Origin: a virus
DNA length: 64,000 nucleotides
IMG/VR virus record: IMGVR_UViG_3300023276_001265
Direction: 5' to 3' (one strand)
The notes beneath the pieces were generated by a model. That model did not search any database and was not told the DNA's origin. It saw only the letters and a program-made list of their open reading frames with translations. Below, in pieces: positions 4,194-63,926 of the stretch. Position 1 is the stretch's first letter, and each line of letters starts with the position of its first letter. Made by a program: the position numbers and the translations under genes.

Positions 4194-6782
4194 TTAGGTG
4201 GAAAGCCTCAGTGAAACTGACTCGTAGAACACCTGCTCGTCGTGAAGAGCACGCAGCTCAGTGATGATGATGTCGAGACGACCGGGGTGGAGATTGACGT
4301 GCTCACCGAGCCACCCACGGAACAGGGCCAACATGTCGTCTTCAACGAGACGCTGATCTTGATTAGGATCATGCTCGCGCGTATGAGCACCCTGTTGTCT
4401 AGAAAACCCTTTTAGGGCTGGGTGCAAAACGTGCCATTCTTCATTATGATTTATCGCGTTTTCTGCCCGCTTAGCGACACTGCCTGTTTGTTTCCCCAAC
4501 TTATGGTCGCGCCCAACAATGGAATGCCAAAATGGGTAGTATTCGTGGGACGTGAGCTCTTCACCTTTCAAACCCTTAAGGGAACTGGTGATGCGATCCC
4601 ACTGAGGAATCTGCTTTCTAACAGCGTCCGCCATACTCTTTGAAGTCTTAACCGCCCCCCTCTCTATTTTACTCCTACCAGGCTTTTTAGAACCGGCCTG
4701 CCAATCAGCCATTAGCTTGACCGGATCGAGCTGATTGTTGTTGATCGCAATTCCGGGTGGTGGTTGAACCTCCAACTTATCAACTGAAATTGGTTGGAGC
4801 GCCGGGTGCCCAAGCGTCCGAAGCATGTCACCCCTAGCGGCTACACGCTGGGCATGAGCCTGAGGCTCTTCACCTATGTGTCGCTTAATTTCTGCGTGGG
4901 TATGCCACGCCTGTGTCGCCCGGTCCCGAAGACCATTGAGGATACCTGTCCACGGCCCACTGTGGGTGTAGTTAGGGATCACAGTCCTGAAATAATCAGC
5001 TCCAGAACCTCTCTTGAACATCCCCGCCTCTAACTGACCAGTCTTTGGGTTCTCTACCGCCGGAGCTCCGAGGGTGCTGCGCAACCAGTCCCCCATGTTG
5101 ACGGTGTAGGGCACAACCGCCCCGGTATTTGGATCTTTGTAGGATCGTTCAAAAACCCCAAGCCGCCCTTTGTTTCCACCTAGTCGTGGATCAGTAAGCA
5201 GTCTCTCCGCTCTCGCTAGAGCCCTCCCCTGGTAGGCCTTGATAGCATCTCTCGGCGACATATCTCCGTGTTGGGCCGCATCGAACTCCGAACCCATTGC
5301 GAGTCTACCGAGTGCATCGCCAGCAGCTCGCTGTTTCACAGGGTCGAGAGGTGCGGCCTGCACATCGCGTGCTCTTTCCAGGGCACCTTCTGCATGTTTA
5401 TCAATCGTCTGGTCGCGGGCAACCTGTGCCCGCTCCTTGGGCGTCATAGCTTTAAGTTCTTCAGGAGTGTAACTAGGACGGGCTGCGCCAGTCCCCTGCC
5501 GCCTATCGTTAATTGCGGACCGCAGACCCGCTTCGCCCTGCTGTCTTCCTCGTGCCCCTAAGCCTTCGACCCCCGCTTGACCTTCTATATATCTTCCCAT
5601 GTTCGTCAATTGCTTAACAAAGGTTGAAGCGTGGTCTTGGTGCGAGTCGTGGTCAACTTCGGGGTTTATTGACCCTGCCTCCCACGCCGCCTGCGCTTCC
5701 GCCCTCTTTGCACGGTGTGCATCCATTGCATCAGAAAAACCTGCCGGATCACCTCTAAAATCCTTTTTAACGGGCTCTCGCCCTAGCCCGAGGATAGCGT
5801 CATCGTGGTGCCTGAACTTCGTGGCGATGGCATTCGCCATAGCGGATCGACCGCCAATCGCATTACCCTTACCGGCGGACGGAGTCGCCCATGTGGCAAG
5901 AATCTCTGAAGCCCTAGCATCACTCTGAGGATTACTCTGCCCATCATTTAGTGCAGCAGAGATGTGTGGGTGAAGACGGGTCACCATGTCATTTATATGA
6001 GGCCTTACATTGTCCTCGACGTACTTCGCCGCAGCGCGTTTAGCCTCCGTACGCTGGGCGCGGGTCATGCCTGCTCCATGACCTTTAGCGTGTACCTCCT
6101 TAGCCCCAGCAAGCCCTTTATTGATGGCATGTCCGCTTTGGCGGGCGTCATAGCCCTCTTTGTAGCCCGCAGCGTATTCTCCACCCTCGGCCGGGTCCTC
6201 GTAAGCCTTTCCACGCTTGGATGCCACCCAACCGGCCTGATAGCCCTTACGGTGCTCAGGGGTTCCACTTGCTCCAGATTTTGATGAAGCGGGCTTAGGC
6301 TCCGGCTCCGGCTTTGATTGCGGCGCCTGACCTCCAGATCCCCGCATGAACCTGGCAGCAGCGTCATCATCAGGAAGGGAGCCAGCATCGTCTGGATTAT
6401 CATCGCTACCATCATCGATGAACAATGGCTCTGGTTCTGGTTCTGACTTTGGCTCTGACTTTGGCTCTGGCTCCTCAGAATCTTTGTGAATTTTGCGATA
6501 ACCTGGATCGTTTTTCATTCTCCAATCGTGGATAGCATCGTCGTCTTCATCTTCATCTCCAGCAGCTCTGTCGCGCTCTTCTGCGCCGTCACTCCCATCA
6601 TCAAAGTCATCGTCGTCGTAGTTATCCCAGTCGGGGCCCTCACTAAGGAGCTTCGCCTTGATACCTGGGGATAGGCTCTCCAGAACATCAAGGGTCTTCT
6701 GATACATTCGCTCAAGAACGGCGTTGCAAGAGTAGAACCCGTCAATGCTCTCGGCAATCAATTTGCCTACATCTACTGCCAT
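4194..6782 (-). CDS. Large acidic/low-complexity protein with an RMF-like GYxxG...GYxxGY hairpin; probable processed internal head protein
   Basis: 862 aa; N-terminal KLIAE and KLLSE; D-rich tract; EPKS/EPEP repeats; start overlaps the upstream stop, with AAGGAG SD. Confidence 0.75.
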   Translation of the reverse strand: MAVDVGKLIAESIDGFYSCNAVLERMYQKTLDVLESLSPGIKAKLLSEGPDWDNYDDDDFDDGSDGAEERDRAAGDEDEDDDAIHDWRMKNDPGYRKIHKDSEEPEPKSEPKSEPEPEPLFIDDGSDDNPDDAGSLPDDDAAARFMRGSGGQAPQSKPEPEPKPASSKSGASGTPEHRKGYQAGWVASKRGKAYEDPAEGGEYAAGYKEGYDARQSGHAINKGLAGAKEVHAKGHGAGMTRAQRTEAKRAAAKYVEDNVRPHINDMVTRLHPHISAALNDGQSNPQSDARASEILATWATPSAGKGNAIGGRSAMANAIATKFRHHDDAILGLGREPVKKDFRGDPAGFSDAMDAHRAKRAEAQAAWEAGSINPEVDHDSHQDHASTFVKQLTNMGRYIEGQAGVEGLGARGRQQGEAGLRSAINDRRQGTGAARPSYTPEELKAMTPKERAQVARDQTIDKHAEGALERARDVQAAPLDPVKQRAAGDALGRLAMGSEFDAAQHGDMSPRDAIKAYQGRALARAERLLTDPRLGGNKGRLGVFERSYKDPNTGAVVPYTVNMGDWLRSTLGAPAVENPKTGQLEAGMFKRGSGADYFRTVIPNYTHSGPWTGILNGLRDRATQAWHTHAEIKRHIGEEPQAHAQRVAARGDMLRTLGHPALQPISVDKLEVQPPPGIAINNNQLDPVKLMADWQAGSKKPGRSKIERGAVKTSKSMADAVRKQIPQWDRITSSLKGLKGEELTSHEYYPFWHSIVGRDHKLGKQTGSVAKRAENAINHNEEWHVLHPALKGFSRQQGAHTREHDPNQDQRLVEDDMLALFRGWLGEHVNLHPGRLDIIITELRALHDEQVFYESVSLRLST

Positions 6783-7633
6783 GCGGGTAGCTCCTTCTTG
6801 ATCGCTGAGATCAAGCCCGTTCTGTGACTACGATCCCCCCACGCTTGGCGTGCGTCGATCAGCCGTCTGTAGGTCTCATATTTTCGCGGCAGGTGGGGGA
6901 CCTGATCGCGAATCTCAAACATCCATTCTAGGATGGTAACCGAATCGTGATGCGGCCAGATCACCTGATTGGTTACTACTGATCCCCTGGTGTTGAGTTC
7001 AGCGCTGAGGCGAGACTTTACTGATTCCAGAAACTTAGGACTAGCTCCTGCGATAGATAGACCGACCATCGGCTTACGCCCAGGTCGTGATCCGTTGCTG
7101 TGGTAAACAGATCCATCACCGTCGAATAGTCCGAGCATGAAGTGCTGCATCAGACTTTCAGGAACTAGAGGAAGGTCAACCATCTTTAGGGACTTAGCCG
7201 GAACGACTCCTACCTGGGTGAGCCAGGTGGCCATTCGTGGGCTGCACACATTTAACGTGTAAACGTCGTCTTTGTAGGGACCACGGACACTACCCCCGAC
7301 CAGGGGAAGAACGGATCGCAAGTGGTCACGCCCGCTCTCATGGCTCTGACTAACGGAGAATCCGGTGCCGTTTTTCCTCACGTTCCCATCAGCGGTCAAA
7401 AACCCCACAACGTAGGACAACGACGCCGACCACGACTCGACGAATGCTTCGTTAGGAACGAGATTTGAGCCCCCGGTATGTGGGACTCGGATCTTCCAAT
7501 AACGATTGTTCCGGAGACGTACGGAGGTCCTAGACCGACCAAGTTGGTCGGCCACAGCTCCAAGATCACGGCTCTCCTCAAGGAGGAGACGGCCCAGAGA
7601 ATTATCGTCTGACGTCCAACGCTTACCGGGCAT
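6773..7633 (-). CDS. Free-standing LAGLIDADG homing endonuclease with N-terminal HTH
   Basis: Two LAGLIDADG motifs (YVVGFLTADG, FMLGLFDGDG); GVVPAKS motif; C-terminus LISAIKKELPAWQ duplicates the end of the upstream gene. Confidence 0.9.
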   Translation of the reverse strand: MPGKRWTSDDNSLGRLLLEESRDLGAVADQLGRSRTSVRLRNNRYWKIRVPHTGGSNLVPNEAFVESWSASLSYVVGFLTADGNVRKNGTGFSVSQSHESGRDHLRSVLPLVGGSVRGPYKDDVYTLNVCSPRMATWLTQVGVVPAKSLKMVDLPLVPESLMQHFMLGLFDGDGSVYHSNGSRPGRKPMVGLSIAGASPKFLESVKSRLSAELNTRGSVVTNQVIWPHHDSVTILEWMFEIRDQVPHLPRKYETYRRLIDARQAWGDRSHRTGLISAIKKELPAWQ

Positions 7634-7677
7634 CGCTATTGCCAGTTAGGCAACTCCTTCTTTATGGCAGAAATAAG
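6815..7677 (-). mobile_element. Homing-endonuclease cassette with a replacement 3' end of the ParB-like gene (boundaries approximate)
   Basis: Flanked by recoded duplicates 7636-7677 and 6773-6814 encoding LISAIKKELP(N/A)WQ*. Confidence 0.75.
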
Positions 7678-8541
7678 GAACTCATTGATCTGATCTGAAT
7701 TTGCCTGGCAAGTCTCGACCAACTCGCCAATTAGTTTATTGAGATGCGCCGTCTCGTTGACGACCAAGTGGGTGTGACCGGCAACGCCAAAGTAGAGATA
7801 TCCCTGGGTGCACGTATCTGCGCTCTGTTGCAGGACGTCCATCTGGAACGCCTTCAGTGATGTCAGCAGGGCCCTTTGATCGGCGAAGGCCTTCTTCTTA
7901 CCCTTGCCCGGCTGGGTCGTGACTTCGTTACCTTCGTCATCCTTTGGGGGACGGCGCTTATCTGGAGAGGCTCCAGTGTTGGCCTGCTCTGATGGTGTCT
8001 TGGAGTTCGAGGATCCGCCGCCGACCTTCGCCTTCTCCACTTCGACCATCGTGTCAATCACTTCTTGGCTGTAACGCTTCTTGAGATCCTCCATTCGCTC
8101 TTCACGAACGAGCATGCGCCGACGCGCAGCCTCAGATGAGATCCCCCACTTGCCAGTGATCTTCTTCTGAAGCTCTGCGTAACGCGTCCGGTTGATCTTG
8201 CCCCGGATGTTGTTCCGCTTAACGCTCCACTCCATGAGCGCTTCTTCGTCCGCATCAGAGAGGTGCTCTTTGACGACGCACGGCATGTGCGTCATCTCAA
8301 GCGCCAGGCACACCTTCTTACGGTGCTCACCACCGAGGAGACGGAACTTTCCTTTGTCCTCCCCCTCAGTGATAGGAACAACCTGTCCAGGCTCATCGAA
8401 CCCGCCGTCCCTGACTGCTTCAAGTAGGGCCGCAAATTCAGGCTCGTCCATCTCGTTCACGTTCCAGTCGCACAAGACTAGAGCATCAACGGGAATTAGA
8501 ACGGCACCCTCCCAGGTTGCGAATGACGCGTTTTTAGACAC
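7636..8541 (-). CDS. ParB/Sulfiredoxin N-terminal domain protein
   Basis: WNVNEM..EFAALLEAVRDGGFDEP..LLGGEHRKKVC..MPCVV. Confidence 0.85.
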   Translation of the reverse strand: MSKNASFATWEGAVLIPVDALVLCDWNVNEMDEPEFAALLEAVRDGGFDEPGQVVPITEGEDKGKFRLLGGEHRKKVCLALEMTHMPCVVKEHLSDADEEALMEWSVKRNNIRGKINRTRYAELQKKITGKWGISSEAARRRMLVREERMEDLKKRYSQEVIDTMVEVEKAKVGGGSSNSKTPSEQANTGASPDKRRPPKDDEGNEVTTQPGKGKKKAFADQRALLTSLKAFQMDVLQQSADTCTQGYLYFGVAGHTHLVVNETAHLNKLIGELVETCQANSDQINEFLISAIKKELPNWQ

Positions 8542-8546
8542 AGGAA

Positions 8547-10532
8547 TTATCTCCGTGGCGACCCAGTGTCGCGACGGCTTTGCCGCGCTGCAGCGTCTTG
8601 GGCGATATTGCGGCTCGGCTTGTCCTTCTTGCCGCTCTCAGCAGCCTTGTGGAGCCCAGTAATCTTGTCCTTGTCGTCGTGCTCAGGCCCGAACCCGGTC
8701 TTGTATTCACTACGACCCTTCTTAGTACCGCCTACGCCGTCATGCGAACCCTTGCACAGACGGTAGAACTCTTTCGGGTCCCGAGCCTGCAGCGCTTGAC
8801 CCGCTTGGCCGAGGTTGCCGTCCTTATCCTTCTGGCAGGCAGGGCGCTCATCGTGGAGATCACCAGTTGGGCGAACATTGATCTGGTGTCCAGACGAGTC
8901 TGCGAATCCGGTGCCCTTTACCTTGTCAATGACGCGCTGACTGGTCTCCTGGTCCTTGTGGTAGGACTTGCCCAGTGAAGCCATAGCTGATGCGTAACCG
9001 CCCTCCTTGGAGACGCGATACCACTTTTGGCGTGGATCCCTATCAGTGTCGCCGACAAAGGCGAACTGATCATCACCGGCCGACCCGCGAGATCCGGCCT
9101 TGCTCTTGTCGGTGTGAAGCATCGCGTCATCGTCTGAGTTGCCGAACGTCGTCGCGTTGGCAAACTTCTTGTTGTTCTTCTTCCCGGAAGAGTGGACGTT
9201 TTCACCTGTGTCGGGGTCCTTGTGGTGGCCCTTCCACTTCGGGTGCTCGTCCTTGCTGTAGCCCTTCGCATCGTCATGCTCGCGATCGCGCGAGGACGGG
9301 TTTGTGAACTGTGCCCGACGGAGCTTGGCAGCCTTTGCCCGTGTTGATCGTTCTGCGTAGTTAGGGTCCGAAGGATCTGTAACCCCTTGGGCCATTCCGT
9401 GCTTGTCCGGTCCTACTTTCTTGCCGGTATCCGGATCAATACGACGAGCTGAGTCGCGGTTTCCACGGCCACGGCCACGGCGCTTACGCTCGTCACTCAG
9501 CGATTGGAAGTCGGCGTTCGCCGATGCTCGATAGCGGGCGTGCTGCTCAGCGTCGTGAGTATCTTCTGGGTGATGGGCCAGAGACCTACGACGATTAGGC
9601 GCCACGAAGGGAGCGGCCTTGGTTGCCTTTCGACCCTTCTCAACGTGTTGCGTCAGGTCATTGAGCGTGTTCTGAAGCGCAGCGACCTTGTCGTGGATGC
9701 TGTCACCGGCCATGGTCTTTTCTGGCATGGCCCCGCTGCCGACCTTGCCTTCTCCACGGCGCTTGGCCATACGGTTCAGTCCGGCCTTACGACCTTGTCG
9801 ATTGCCAGCTGGTGTTTTGTAGACGTCTGCTGGGTCTTCGATCCCCGTTACCTTCTTGGCGCGGGACTTCCGAACACCTTTCAGCTTTCCTTTGATGCGG
9901 TCCGCAACTGCATCGTCGTCAGGAATCGGAGAAGGCTCAGGCCGGTCAGGACCAGGAGTAGGACGACCTAGCCAAGCTGGCCTCTTCGACTTTTTCTTGG
10001 AACCTGGATCGTCATCTAGGGCCTGGGCCCCGGCGCCTGGGGCAGCCGGAGGTGGAGTTCCACCACCACCATCACCACCACCACCACGGGGCGGCTTGTC
10101 CTTCTTGTCCTTCTTCGCCAGGGCCTTCATCTCATCTGGAGACATCCCGATCTTCTTACGGTCATAAGCGATCTTCGGCTTGAACTTGGACGCTTCCGGC
10201 TCCGGCTCACCGGCCGCTGCACGCGCCGCTTTTGCCGCCGCACGCTTTCTGGCCTGCTTAGCCTTGTTCTTCTCGTTCGCCCGGTTCTTAGCCACCTTAC
10301 GGGCGGCTTTGCCTTGAGCAAACTCTTCAGGAGATTGCTTCGGGATAGCCGCCTCCGCCAAGAAGCGAAGCGCGAAGCGCGAGTGTGTCCGACTTAGTCC
10401 TGCTGGGACTGGGGACTGGTGAGCACGTTCAACCAAGCGCATTGCGCCTGATCTACCGAGATCAGTATTGATGCTCTCAAGGATGTTGAGCACGCGAGCC
10501 GCGTGAAATTCCATCTTTGCTGTGTTGGCCAT
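8547..10532 (-). CDS. Large basic, disordered protein; probable internal head or DNA-condensing protein
   Basis: 661 aa rich in K/R/D/G; N-terminal ILE, LVE and LAE candidate cleavage motifs. Confidence 0.7.
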   Translation of the reverse strand: MANTAKMEFHAARVLNILESINTDLGRSGAMRLVERAHQSPVPAGLSRTHSRFALRFLAEAAIPKQSPEEFAQGKAARKVAKNRANEKNKAKQARKRAAAKAARAAAGEPEPEASKFKPKIAYDRKKIGMSPDEMKALAKKDKKDKPPRGGGGDGGGGTPPPAAPGAGAQALDDDPGSKKKSKRPAWLGRPTPGPDRPEPSPIPDDDAVADRIKGKLKGVRKSRAKKVTGIEDPADVYKTPAGNRQGRKAGLNRMAKRRGEGKVGSGAMPEKTMAGDSIHDKVAALQNTLNDLTQHVEKGRKATKAAPFVAPNRRRSLAHHPEDTHDAEQHARYRASANADFQSLSDERKRRGRGRGNRDSARRIDPDTGKKVGPDKHGMAQGVTDPSDPNYAERSTRAKAAKLRRAQFTNPSSRDREHDDAKGYSKDEHPKWKGHHKDPDTGENVHSSGKKNNKKFANATTFGNSDDDAMLHTDKSKAGSRGSAGDDQFAFVGDTDRDPRQKWYRVSKEGGYASAMASLGKSYHKDQETSQRVIDKVKGTGFADSSGHQINVRPTGDLHDERPACQKDKDGNLGQAGQALQARDPKEFYRLCKGSHDGVGGTKKGRSEYKTGFGPEHDDKDKITGLHKAAESGKKDKPSRNIAQDAAARQSRRDTGSPRR

Positions 10533-11373: not shown

Positions 11374-13983
11374 TTGATCACCTACCAAAACGGACGATTT
11401 CGCAGTGTTCGACCGGTTGCAGAGGCAATGGCCCTTCTGCAGACTGAAATTGATGAGCTCACTCCTGATGAGAAAGGAGCTCTCGATCTCCTAATTAAGG
11501 ACATCGCTGGGAAGCAGGCAAAAGAGATTGCCGATGCTGCCGAGCGCCTTGAGTGGGATTCTGATACTGGACCGGCCATCCCAATCCGTCAGTGGGTCAA
11601 CGACGAATACTACCTCGGCGAGACGGCCCGCACTCTGTGGCCCAGGCTCAAGGAGGACATGATTGAGTATTTTGAGGGCGACTATGCGGAGTGCATCCTC
11701 ACTGGGTCGACACGCTGGGGTAAGGATTATTTCAGCACTACAGCCCTAATCCGGATCATCTACGAGCTTTATTGCCTGAAGCGGCCCACTGACACACTGG
11801 GACTTGGTCGTGGTGAGATCATTCACATCGTCCCTATCTCGCATACTAAGGAAGCTGCTCAACGAGTCGTTTTCCAGGGAATCGTGCGTAAGCTCGCCCT
11901 GACCCCATTCTGGAAGGGCCGGTTCGAGGTCACTAAAGAGGAGATTCGCTTCCCAGGTAAGGACATCATCATCATTGGTGGTGGATCTAATGAGGGCGCT
12001 GCACTTGGTCTTAATGTGTGGGCCGCACTTATCGATGAGGGCAACTTCATGGGTAAGCAGAAGAAGGGTCACGTAGCCGCCGGTGGCGGTAAGGACGACA
12101 AGTCCGAGTCCATCTACGATTCACTGCGACGTCGTATTCGAGGCACCTACTCGGCCACAGGCCTTCGTGGTCGTCTGATCATGATTTCATCGAAGAAGTC
12201 GATATATGACTTCACCGAGCGAAGACTCCGCGAGGCGATGCGGGAAAACGATACGAGCGTTTTTGTCCGAGATTACGCCACCTGGGACGTCCGACCAAAC
12301 GCGTTTATGGGCCAGAAATGGTGGCGTGCAGCCGTTTCTCAGAAGATTGGCCGCGTTCGCGTCCTTGATGATGGGGAAGAGGTAGAAGACCACGAGATTT
12401 GGTTCCGCTTCCCTGATGAGTATCTTCAGGACTTTCTGAACGATCCCGCAGGTGCGGCCCGAGACATTGCTGGTATTGCGCTGGAATCGTTCCGTCCGTT
12501 CTTCTCGAATCGAGAAGCCATTGACGCAATGATGAAGCCAGAGCGGGCGCACCCATTCCATATCTACGAGTGGGTCACCAGTAGGGAGATCAAGCCGATC
12601 TGGGACAACATGATGATCCGGAACGTGCACGGAGATCCGGTCCCGAGATGTTGCCCAAACGCACACCGACACGTCCACATGGACCTTTCAAAGAACAAGG
12701 ACGCTACAGGGTTTTGTGTGGGCCACGTTGCCGGAGAGGTCGAAGTCTCGCGCCTGGACCCAGAGACTCACGAGAAGAGGAAAGAGGACGCCCCTCTAAT
12801 CCACATTGACTTGTGCCTCCGTATCCTGGCCCCTCATGCGGGAGAGATTGAACATCAACTTGTCAGATCGTTGATCTACATGCTCCGAGAGGGTGGTCTC
12901 CCGATCAAGTCGGTATCTGCGGACCGTTGGATGGGGCTTCCAAACCTCCAGCTCATCGCTAAGCACGGATTCAAGACACAGGAGATATCGACCCAGAGAA
13001 CCCTTGATCCTTACCTGTCTGCACAGGGAGCTCTCTATGAGGGGCGGATTGAGAGCCCTGTTTACACCTTCTTGGCGAAGGAGCTCCGAGAGCTTGAGCT
13101 GAATTCCCAGGGAACCAAAGTCGATCACCCGCGCACGGGCTGCTTCGCGGGTGACACGAAGGTTCGCCTCTTGGACGGGAGGGCGATCACGTTTGAGCAG
13201 CTAGTGGCTGAGTATGGAGAAGGTCAGAGATTCCACACCTATACGATGCGAGAAGGTGCCGTGTCTGTCGGAATCGGTTACGCACCACGTCTGACGGCTA
13301 AGAACGCGCCTGTAGTGGCGGTCACGTTGGACAACGGCGAGACCGTCAGGTGTACGCCTGACCACAGGTTCATGCTCCGAGATGGGAGTTATCGCGAGGC
13401 CGGGGAGCTGCAACCCGGCGACTCGTTGATGCCGCTCTACACCAAGTTGTCCACAAAGTCGGCCCACAAGATGGTCGGTTACGAGCTCTACTTGTGCCCC
13501 GGCGATGGTAAGTGGCACTTCACCCATCGGATGGTCGGAAAGTGGAAGTACCCGGGCTACACAGGCAACCAGCACGGTAATGGACTGATTCACCACGACC
13601 GGGGGAAGCTAAACAACGCGCCCGACGCGTTCTGCATCGCGCCCGGTAATCACAAGGTCGTGAGCGTTGAGCCTAGTGGGACCGCCGATGTCTACGACAT
13701 TTCAGTCGAAGAGACATCGAACTTCGCTCTTGATGCAGGAATCTTTGTCCACAACTCAAAGGATCTGGCCGATGCGTTTGCGGCCGTCTGCTACTTCCTA
13801 GCCACGAACTGGAGATCCATTGGAGGGGGCGGCATTTCAATGGGCGCCTCTGTTATCGAGACTCCAGGCCTGCCAGGCGAGGCGGTTCCTACGTCAGACG
13901 GTAATTTCAGGTGGCCAGACGAGCCGCCCCTACCCACTGAGGGCGGGGAAGATTGGACCGGTCTACCAACGTGGATCATCTGA
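11374..13983 (+). CDS. terL: Terminase large subunit, intein-containing
   Basis: Walker A-like GSTRWGKD; Walker B ALIDEG; coupling motif ISS; RNase H-like nuclease (HVHMDLS, ADRW, DHP..SKDLADA). Confidence 0.92.
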   Translation: MITYQNGRFRSVRPVAEAMALLQTEIDELTPDEKGALDLLIKDIAGKQAKEIADAAERLEWDSDTGPAIPIRQWVNDEYYLGETARTLWPRLKEDMIEYFEGDYAECILTGSTRWGKDYFSTTALIRIIYELYCLKRPTDTLGLGRGEIIHIVPISHTKEAAQRVVFQGIVRKLALTPFWKGRFEVTKEEIRFPGKDIIIIGGGSNEGAALGLNVWAALIDEGNFMGKQKKGHVAAGGGKDDKSESIYDSLRRRIRGTYSATGLRGRLIMISSKKSIYDFTERRLREAMRENDTSVFVRDYATWDVRPNAFMGQKWWRAAVSQKIGRVRVLDDGEEVEDHEIWFRFPDEYLQDFLNDPAGAARDIAGIALESFRPFFSNREAIDAMMKPERAHPFHIYEWVTSREIKPIWDNMMIRNVHGDPVPRCCPNAHRHVHMDLSKNKDATGFCVGHVAGEVEVSRLDPETHEKRKEDAPLIHIDLCLRILAPHAGEIEHQLVRSLIYMLREGGLPIKSVSADRWMGLPNLQLIAKHGFKTQEISTQRTLDPYLSAQGALYEGRIESPVYTFLAKELRELELNSQGTKVDHPRTGCFAGDTKVRLLDGRAITFEQLVAEYGEGQRFHTYTMREGAVSVGIGYAPRLTAKNAPVVAVTLDNGETVRCTPDHRFMLRDGSYREAGELQPGDSLMPLYTKLSTKSAHKMVGYELYLCPGDGKWHFTHRMVGKWKYPGYTGNQHGNGLIHHDRGKLNNAPDAFCIAPGNHKVVSVEPSGTADVYDISVEETSNFALDAGIFVHNSKDLADAFAAVCYFLATNWRSIGGGGISMGASVIETPGLPGEAVPTSDGNFRWPDEPPLPTEGGEDWTGLPTWII
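13141..13755 (+). mobile_element. Intein (205 aa) in the TerL nuclease domain, with an HNH-like remnant
   Basis: Starts CFAGDTKVRLLDG; block B CTPDHRF; block F VYDISVEETSNF; ends VHN followed by Ser; removal restores DHPRTG|SKDLADA. Confidence 0.92.
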
Positions 13984-62611: not shown

Positions 62612-63331
62612 ATGGGCATGACCGAAGACGAAATCAAGGCTTACGTTCTCCGACGCCTGGGCTCTGGCATCATTGACGTCGAGCTGACTGGCGCTATGCA
62701 GAATGACGTCATCAAGGACACCAAGCGCTGGTTTGGATTCCGTGTTGGCCAGAAGCGAGTGGTCCAGATTCCGCTCACAACAGCTACTAACGTCTACATC
62801 CTCGAACCGGACGTAACTGAAGTTCTGCGGGTGTTCCTACCGTCATCCCACTTTCCAGCTGTGGATACAGACGACTTCTCTTACACCTATTCGCTCCTAT
62901 TCGGACAATGGCGCTCCCCAGGAGCATCACCAATGCCGTATTCCGACCTCATTCAGCGCCTCCAATACCTGAATGTGAGCAAGAGGATCTTTTCTGCGGA
63001 CCGTGAATGGACCTATGACAGGGACACGCATGAGCTTCAGATCATGCCCCGCCCATCCATCGTGGGCAACGCGCTGATCGAGGTGTGGACTAAGGACATC
63101 GATACGCGTCAATTCGGCCCAGAAGACGAGGACATCTTCCTTCGCTACTCACTGGCGCACTCTAAGACGTTCCTCGGTGAGATCCGATCGAAGTACGACA
63201 GCATGTCTATGGTCGGAGGGGATCGGAGCCTGAACGGTGAATCCCTGCTTGAGGCTGCTAAAGCGGAGAAGGAGCAGCTTGAGAAGGACGTGATTAACTG
63301 GAGGAGAGCTACCCCACTCATCATGGAGTAG
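62612..63331 (+). CDS. Neck/head-completion protein (T4 gp13-like)
   Basis: IKAYVLRRLG..IDVELT; LGEIRSKY..LNGESLL.AAKAEKEQLE. Confidence 0.85.
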   Translation: MGMTEDEIKAYVLRRLGSGIIDVELTGAMQNDVIKDTKRWFGFRVGQKRVVQIPLTTATNVYILEPDVTEVLRVFLPSSHFPAVDTDDFSYTYSLLFGQWRSPGASPMPYSDLIQRLQYLNVSKRIFSADREWTYDRDTHELQIMPRPSIVGNALIEVWTKDIDTRQFGPEDEDIFLRYSLAHSKTFLGEIRSKYDSMSMVGGDRSLNGESLLEAAKAEKEQLEKDVINWRRATPLIME

Positions 63332-63884
63332 AGTCGTTTATATGAGCAAGTGGAGACCAATTCCTGGGTTTGACGGTTACTGCGCTTCTGCGGATGGGGA
63401 GATTTTCTCTGCAAAGAGGAACGTAGTAATGAAGCCTCAGAAGATGTCGAACAAACACAACGCTCGCCATCTTTACGTGGGACTCTACCTAGGTAAAGGG
63501 CGGCGCATGCGCCGTGGGGTGCATCAACTTGTGGCATTAACTTACCTGGACCCCAAGCCGACCACGGAGCACGAGGTCAACCACATCAACGGCGATCCGA
63601 CGGACAACCGGTCGACGAATCTGGAATGGCTCACCAGGGCTGAAAATGAGGCGCACGCTGTAGTCAATAGGCTCAAGGCCAGCGGTAAGCGACATGGCAG
63701 GAGCACGAAACCAGAACGAACGGCACGCGGCACGCGGCATGGCCGATCTAAGATCACCGAGGACATCGTTAGGGAGATCAGAACTTTCAGAGAAGAAGGA
63801 GTAACCGAGCCGGTATTGGCAGAGAGGTTTGGAATCTCCAGATCGCTGGTAGGTCAGATCGGGCGCTGTGAGATCTGGAAACAC
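63290..63884 (+). mobile_element. HNH cassette with a replacement 3' end of the neck gene (boundaries approximate)
   Basis: VINWRRATPLIME* encoded at 63290-63331 and 63885-63926 with different codons. Confidence 0.8.
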
Positions 63885-63926
63885 GTAATCAACTGGCGCC
63901 GTGCAACTCCTTTGATCATGGAGTGA
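63342..63926 (+). CDS. NUMOD4-HNH homing endonuclease with C-terminal HTH
   Basis: WRPIPGFDGY..S..G.I; VHQLVA..VNHINGDPTDNRSTNLEW.T..EN. Confidence 0.92.
   Translation: MSKWRPIPGFDGYCASADGEIFSAKRNVVMKPQKMSNKHNARHLYVGLYLGKGRRMRRGVHQLVALTYLDPKPTTEHEVNHINGDPTDNRSTNLEWLTRAENEAHAVVNRLKASGKRHGRSTKPERTARGTRHGRSKITEDIVREIRTFREEGVTEPVLAERFGISRSLVGQIGRCEIWKHVINWRRATPLIME

Follow-up and report, generated by a model that had tools for sequence, protein, structure and literature searches.

In a viral DNA of 64,000 nucleotides (nt; IMG/VR record IMGVR_UViG_3300023276_001265, called the window here in its full length) the last 13 codons of a ParB-like gene occur a second time, in diverged form, at the end of the LAGLIDADG endonuclease open reading frame (ORF) that follows it. 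We consider it probable that a homing endonuclease cassette which does without splicing was inserted into the ParB-like gene between F288 and L289. Such a cassette would consist of the 13 final ParB codons in diverged form with a stop codon, a 2-nt spacer, and an endonuclease ORF without a stop codon of its own. After the insertion ParB would be finished by the tail copy of the cassette, and the endonuclease frame would run into the displaced native tail and end at the native stop, leaving the Shine-Dalgarno (SD) sequence and the overlapping ATG of the next gene unmoved.

Organization of the ParB locus

All coordinates are window positions. The ParB-like gene, the endonuclease ORF and the next gene lie on the minus strand and are composed of the following features, given in the direction of reading:

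7636..8541 (minus): ParB-like gene, 301 amino acids (aa), ParB N-terminal/nuclease-like domain; ends ...NEF LISAIKKELPNWQ TAG
7636..7677 (minus): upstream (putative replacement) tail copy, the last 13 ParB codons LISAIKKELPNWQ and TAG; completes ParB
7634..7635 (minus): spacer CG, 2 nt, between the ParB stop and the endonuclease ATG
6773..7633 (minus): LAGLIDADG endonuclease gene, free-standing, 286 aa; starts with ATG, ends ...HRTG LISAIKKELPAWQ TAG
7496..7612 (minus): N-terminal three-helix (Myb/helix-turn-helix-like) domain of the endonuclease, residues 8-46; model helices 8-21, 24-31 and 35-46
6914..7450 (minus): LAGLIDADG core, residues 62-240, with both motifs, ..GFLTADGNV.. and ..GLFDGDGSV..
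6773..6814 (minus): downstream tail copy, LISAIKKELPAWQ and TAG; now read as endonuclease C-terminus and stop
6791..6796 (minus): AAGGAG, SD of the next gene, inside the downstream copy and 8 nt before the next-gene ATG
4194..6782 (minus): next gene, 862 aa; ATG at 6780..6782 within the codons for A-W-Q

The ParB-like ORF matches phrog_26387 ("ParB-like partition nuclease") with an expectation value (E) of 3e-15. The two tails have 12 of 13 residues in common, the single residue change being N versus A, and their 42-nt sequences show 12 base differences, with eight codons changed synonymously. The longest identical run between the copies is 9 nt (AAGAAGGAG). At the left junction, the first 15 nt of the tail carry six changes in the upstream copy. 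The next-gene ATG and the endonuclease stop overlap by 10 nt (ATGGCAGTAG); in the upstream copy the codons at the variable residue and the following W (AAC TGG) hold no start codon for the next gene. An earlier reading of the letters alone, referred to below as the original prediction, had described the tail layout, the 12 shared residues, the eight synonymous changes and the SD with the overlapping ATG in the downstream copy. All of these were confirmed, and the span it had named (6773..7677) runs precisely from the start of the upstream copy to the end of the downstream copy, with the endonuclease between them.

As a control for chance we compared the last 13 residues in all same-strand pairs of the 420 stop-to-stop ORFs of at least 60 aa in the window. 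Only two pairs with eight or more common residues occur, one being the ParB/endonuclease pair and the other the pair 62612..63331/63342..63926 described further below. By this all-against-all comparison of ORF ends the tail duplication is real and not due to chance.

No usable SD was found in front of the endonuclease ATG, which follows the ParB stop after 2 nt, and after 3 nt (CTG) at the same junction of a diverged lineage, L006. This suggests that translation of the endonuclease is probably started by re-initiation after ParB termination, at a low level. Neither a sigma-70-like promoter nor a minus-strand terminator motif was found between the three genes.

Empty alleles and the native copy of the tail

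In the protein collection 91 relatives of the ParB-like protein were found, most of them with a precomputed PF02195 match, and nearly all of these relatives end ...FLISAIKKELPxWQ, where x is variable. To define the empty state of the locus we used 13 distinct endonuclease-less alleles with DNA sequence (L001, L007-L011, L013, L015, L018, L020, L022, L024 and L025) and two further ones, on the contigs of P0006 and P0013, from gene tables alone. In all 13 alleles with DNA and in both gene tables ParB abuts the next gene with the same 10-nt overlap, as the original prediction had expected of such relatives. The overlap sequence in the empty alleles is A or G followed by TGGCAGTAG, or a close variant, and the N-terminus of the next gene is conserved among the relatives.

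At the x codon, all 13 empty alleles and the downstream copies of the three occupied lineages have A or G as third base, which the overlapping ATG or GTG of the next gene needs. In the upstream copies this base is C (window) or T (L006). The SD, AAG GAG, is kept in the empty alleles (AAC GAG in L022) and in the three downstream copies; in the upstream copy of L006 it is changed to AAA GAA.

Over the 42 nt of the tail the downstream copy is nearer than the upstream copy to 10 of the 13 empty alleles, which is the second likeness that had been predicted. The number of differences of the downstream versus the upstream copy is 5 versus 12 for L007, 5 versus 12 for L018, and 6 versus 16 for L011. 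L007 is the closest relative, with 80% nt identity over the ParB gene, and the downstream copy matches the tails of L007 and L018 at 37 of 42 nt.

Since the SD and the overlapping start restrict which nucleotides the tail can have, the tail comparison was calibrated on native pairs by calculating the identity of the tail minus that of the gene body over 45 pairs of empty alleles. In these native pairs the tail is on average 5.3 points (standard deviation 6.3) more similar than the gene body. The downstream copy of the window yields +4.1 points, which is within native behaviour, compared to −5.4 points for the upstream copy (mean versus 10 empty alleles), which is below 98% of the native pairs. 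By this sequence measure only the downstream one of the two copies behaves like a native tail. The calibration also bears out the earlier claim that the original gene end was taken over as the stop of the endonuclease. The companion claim of a recoded replacement end holds in part: the upstream copy is indeed diverged and an outlier, and its arrival in an already recoded form is taken up below together with the search for a donor.

The endonuclease

The endonuclease ORF matches the Pfam family LAGLIDADG_3 (PF14528, E 5.5e-8) and the PHROGs endonuclease family phrog_4645 (E 2.6e-23), and a HMMER scan yielded 5263 endonuclease relatives at E<=1e-3. An alignment of 64 endonuclease sequences (A2) served to build an AlphaFold (AF2) model, which has a predicted local distance difference test (pLDDT) score of 94.1 and a predicted template modelling (pTM) score of 0.83. 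The residues G77, D82 and G83 of motif 1 and G168, G172, D173 and G174 of motif 2 are invariant in A2. Both motifs, located at about residues 74-85 and 165-176 and each with an acidic residue, align to 2dch. The model core (62-240) is a double alpha-beta-beta-alpha-beta-beta-alpha fold, and a long terminal helix spans residues 249-281. Foldseek returned I-Tsp061I, PI-PfuI, I-DmoI, I-SceI, I-AniI and I-OnuI for the model, with a probability of 1.00.

The LAGLIDADG identity, which had been proposed from the translation, is thus agreed upon by Pfam, PHROGs, the invariant motif residues, the model fold and Foldseek. On the basis of sequence and model, ORF 6773..7633 is a single-chain, two-motif LAGLIDADG homing endonuclease that would be expected to cleave a long DNA target (about 20 bp) site-specifically. 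The three-helix domain modelled at its N-terminus is probably an extra DNA-binding module, and the same N-terminal region of the L006 copy gives a weak Myb_DNA-binding match (E 0.0078).

Most relatives stop approximately 14 residues past a conserved RKY motif, near residue 264-268 of the window enzyme. Within the 64 rows of A2 a ParB-like tail is limited to the copies at the ParB site, i.e. the window and L031. This earlier end of the relatives and the restriction of the tail indicate that the last 13 codons do not belong to the endonuclease family. The endonuclease proper comprises about residues 1-268 and is followed by a five-residue linker, then by the 13 native ParB tail codons and the native stop.

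Other occupied lineages

An identical endonuclease with the same neighbours is present on 14 contigs, which make up the window lineage. The ParB site is occupied in three diverged lineages (window, L031 and L006), at the same codon and with the same in-frame fusion to the native tail. The L031 enzyme is intact, with 61% identity over residues 10-286 and both motifs present; it ends ...LISAIKKELPSWQ, and its stop overlaps a next-gene GTG. L006:113-586 (plus strand) is a decayed endonuclease of 157 aa with 67-69% identity to the window enzyme, in which an in-frame deletion of residues 73-200 has removed both motifs and the open frame still runs into the native tail. The upstream tail of L006 (LISAIRKELPSWQ) has kept every invariant ParB residue and lost AAGGAG. 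Its downstream tail (LIHAIKKELPKWQ) has kept the SD and the start and lost the invariant serine. The displaced native tail is no decaying remnant: it is kept in frame in three lineages and bears the next-gene SD and start.

Between the window and L006 endonucleases the synonymous sites are saturated, and the proportion of non-synonymous differences (pN) is 0.17-0.22. Judged from this comparison, the endonuclease is under purifying selection for most of the divergence between the two lineages. The ratio of non-synonymous to synonymous rates (dN/dS) on the 13-codon tails was uninformative due to saturated synonymous sites and too few sites.

The next-gene N-terminus is not of one type in the occupied lineages, and each type is also found among the empty alleles. 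Wherever the sequence is free to vary, the downstream copies differ among the three lineages. With three occupied lineages versus at least 13 empty alleles among the syntenic relatives, and one copy decayed, the site is polymorphic, a distribution that would fit spread by homing and subsequent decay.

Searches with the window sequences outside these lineages gave little. A blastn search of 6000..9000 versus GenBank phages yielded only a 48-nt low-complexity match, IMG/VR contained no endonuclease relative and only one close ParB locus, and an exact-sequence look-up of the window ParB protein (P0001) returned no record.

Proposed mechanism

LAGLIDADG enzymes normally cut at their own insertion point. 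We therefore place the target in the empty alleles at or near the F288/L289 junction, where it would span ...AATGAGTTC and, directly across the junction, CTCATCTCGGC.... The occupied genome would serve as repair template, with the ParB body as homology on the left and the native tail and next gene on the right, and through the repair the empty allele would acquire both the replacement tail and the endonuclease. The occupied allele itself would be protected at both junctions, as the left one is recoded and the right one is preceded by endonuclease sequence. An identical copy would rebuild the target at the left junction, which argues for an imported copy that was different from the outset. The 9-nt limit of continuous identity between the copies could also hinder loss of the element by repeat recombination. 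The strong SD of the next gene is retained, and translational coupling would thereby be preserved. Cleavage, target location, resistance of the recoded copy and importance of the coupling are deduced parts of this model.

Several points weigh against the insertion at F288/L289 as outlined. The SD and start constraint contributes to the likeness of the downstream copy to the empty alleles, and a comparison with L007 limited to the five codons free of it gives 3 versus 5 differences. Cleavage is a prediction, and its target site a guess from the habit of LAGLIDADG enzymes to cut at the place of their insertion. The saturation of synonymous sites makes horizontal spread and old vertical descent with repeated loss look alike. 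Furthermore, among the empty alleles the best match to the upstream copy is only 32 of 42 nt, and no donor-like tail was found. A foreign origin of the upstream copy is thus only putative, and the copy may simply have drifted after its release from the SD and start constraint. Import in an already recoded form is our tentative reading; the calibration of the tails is compatible with both.

A last point of this kind is the recombination mosaic inside the ParB gene. Codons 25-192 and 265-288 are closest to L007 (81-89% nt), and codons 193-264 (window 7747..7965) are nearer to L010 and L013 (81-89% nt) than to L007 (70-74%). This patch does not adjoin the insertion point, and for that reason no conclusion on co-conversion was drawn from it.

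The persistence of the fusion in three lineages whose enzymes are 32-39% different, even in the motif-less copy, raises the question of a function of the displaced tail. It is conceivable, if rather doubtful, that the native tail, once displaced, has a working role in the element and is not a leftover. Ribosomes may have to reach the native stop for the overlapping next gene, so that the host cannot simply delete or truncate the parasite. As another option, the conserved C-terminal peptide of ParB may be a docking motif that the endonuclease has borrowed to follow ParB.

Alternative explanations

The duplication makes the final structure formally describable either way. The cassette could also have been composed of the endonuclease and the downstream copy and have been inserted just past the ParB stop. 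The upstream copy would then be native, and the downstream copy would have been imported to supply the next gene with a new SD and start. An upstream copy freed from the SD and start constraint would drift, which would explain the calibration of the tail divergence as well. However, the junction between the downstream copy and the next gene is uninterrupted and resembles that of the empty alleles (37 of 42 nt, then 16 of 20 nt versus L007). A target at this junction would be cut in the occupied genome itself, and we therefore regard an insertion behind the ParB stop as unlikely. The three downstream copies, different as they are at all free positions, also give no sign of having travelled with the endonuclease.

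The locus might instead be a defunct relic, i.e. an old vertical insertion that has lost homing and in which the differences between the copies reflect neutral drift and are not a resistance device. The saturated synonymous sites between occupied lineages, the L006 lineage without both motifs, and the fact that no near-identical pair of an empty and an occupied allele was found would agree with this. Against it stand the two lineages with intact motifs and the purifying selection on the protein. In addition, the occupied lineages are scattered among empty ones with different types of next-gene N-terminus, and an identical imported copy would have restored the target at the left junction. Taken together we consider a relic quite improbable.

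A spliced element (group I or group II intron, or intein) with a mature ParB ending in the downstream copy is hardly credible: inteins do occupy the same ParB-like gene in the relatives L018 and L025, but here ParB ends in a TAG and the endonuclease is in another frame, the endonuclease ORF has no Hint domain match, an Rfam search of 6400..8100 gave no intron family at E<=1, the non-coding flanks of the endonuclease ORF are just 2 nt and 0 nt, and in two lineages the upstream copy retains all invariant ParB tail residues despite saturating synonymous change, which marks it as the translated end of ParB. The stop codon, the frame change and the missing Hint and intron matches thus uphold the insertion without splicing claimed by the original prediction. 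A ParB-endonuclease fusion by frameshift was dropped, as no slippery heptamer precedes the TAG.

Further mobile elements and neighbouring genes

A second case of shared ends lies in the window on the plus strand. The gene 62612..63331 (239 aa) ends VINWRRATPLIME before its stop, and the following HNH-type ORF 63342..63926 (194 aa) has the same 13 final residues (13 of 13) in different codons, with the ATG of the next gene a few bases on. In L025 a mirror case was found at the 5' end of the ParB-like gene. The EndoVII/HNH-like ORF L025:1418-2143 (plus strand; phrog_1035, E 3e-32) has the native ParB N-terminus at its start, where about 31 of 35 residues match the endonuclease-less relative P0044, and the ParB of L025 (L025:2121-4304, plus strand) itself starts with a different replacement N-terminus.

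Two different inteins (Hint and LAGLIDADG_3) are present in the ParB-like genes L018:1039-2946 (plus strand) and L025:2121-4304, one inserted before C88 (..EMTHMP/C..) and one before C78 (..GGEHRYKA/C..). The ParB-like gene hence has four mobile-element sites, i.e. two inteins and two end-replacing nucleases, and represents a natural comparison set of different selfish elements solving one problem. Three genes away from the ParB locus the 869-aa ORF 11374..13983 (plus strand) contains an intein splicing domain (PF14890, E 2e-15, residues 641-794).

Endonuclease relatives with 36-38% identity to the window enzyme occur on L032 and L034. On L032 the relative P0104 (L032:1-897, plus strand) lies directly upstream of a T4 gp19-type tail-tube gene, and the contig begins inside the endonuclease. 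On L034 (L034:3001-3897 and 4849-5901, plus strand) the relative P0105 is located near a capsid gene and beside a second LAGLIDADG ORF; neither of these two ORFs shares a C-terminus with its upstream gene.

The ParB-like gene and the endonuclease are flanked by two large minus-strand genes, 4194..6782 (862 aa) and 8547..10532 (661 aa), which are charged and low in complexity. Pfam and PHROG searches gave no family for either of them. Both are syntenic with ParB in every relative examined.

For annotation in general, a short C-terminal identity between a gene and a following HNH or LAGLIDADG ORF marks an insertion site and with it the probable target of an uncharacterised meganuclease.

Comparison with known systems

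The usual view is that a homing endonuclease must reside in an intron, an intein or intergenic space if the host gene is to be spared. The ParB locus would represent a third route in phage, in which the end of the gene is replaced and the old end is reused. This solution suits compact genomes with overlapping genes, as the ribosome site and start of the downstream gene stay untouched.

A replacement 3' end that leaves the target gene intact is also brought by the prophage e14 at icd and by integrative elements at tRNA genes. These elements differ in mechanism, as they use a tyrosine or serine integrase at an att site. The free-standing endonucleases SegF, SegG and MobE of T4 are reportedly similar to the ParB-site element in lying between phage genes, in their patchy occurrence and in their spread by double-strand-break repair with co-conversion of the flanks. 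In contrast to it they are said to be intergenic and to cut a neighbouring gene at a distance, with no duplication or replacement of a gene end.

A full-text literature search, with most subscription journals outside its coverage, gave no published description of the layout in a phage. Reports on Xanthomonas phages, Rephine.r, Klebsiella KP27 and Skunavirus HNH genes were considered and set aside. The nearest published phage case we found is the MobA element of T4-like phages, which consists of mobA and the gene 60 bypass cassette in a topoisomerase gene (10.1101/2022.08.31.505936). Like the ParB-site element it is a cassette inside a conserved ORF and brings a diverged copy of the target (homR, 67-81% DNA identity); the occupied allele is protected from its own enzyme, and the endonuclease is decayed in some lineages (10.1101/2022.08.31.505936). 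MobA differs in being an HNH enzyme, in dividing the gene into two parts with a loss of 55-75 nt of target sequence and a gain of new tails, and in its dependence on ribosomal bypass (10.1101/2022.08.31.505936). At the ParB site the gene is whole, with no deletion and no need for translational recoding.

Outside of phages the WHO elements at FBA1 of the yeasts Torulaspora and Lachancea are comparable (PMC7282813). Their unit is an endonuclease gene preceded by a 3' end of the target that confers resistance; the target becomes chimeric, and the old 3' end is pushed downstream and used as repair homology (PMC7282813). WHO proteins are however intein-derived zinc-finger fusions that are transcribed independently and form clusters, and for WHO6 cleavage and resistance have been demonstrated (PMC7282813), whereas for the ParB-site element both are predicted.

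The same layout, as the original prediction had rightly suggested, is found in fungal mitochondria, where mORFs make "gene hybrids" of atp6 in Allomyces macrogynus and of atp6, atp9, cox2 and nad3 in Glomus sp. (PMC3630166). There, too, a LAGLIDADG or GIY-YIG ORF is located near the 3' end of a conserved gene, the gene is completed by an inserted C-terminus, and its native C-terminus, now further downstream, is the one that resembles ORF-less relatives more closely (PMC3630166). The ParB-site element differs in its phage host and in a repeat of just 13 codons. Its endonuclease has an ATG of its own past the gene stop, whereas the mORF is fused to the gene. The displaced tail, a decaying remnant in the fungi, provides at the ParB site the last 13 codons of the enzyme, its stop, and the SD and start of the next gene. 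Terminus replacement is hence known from fungi and yeast; what appears to be new, as read from the sequence, is its occurrence in a phage, with a very short repeat and a displaced tail that stays in use.

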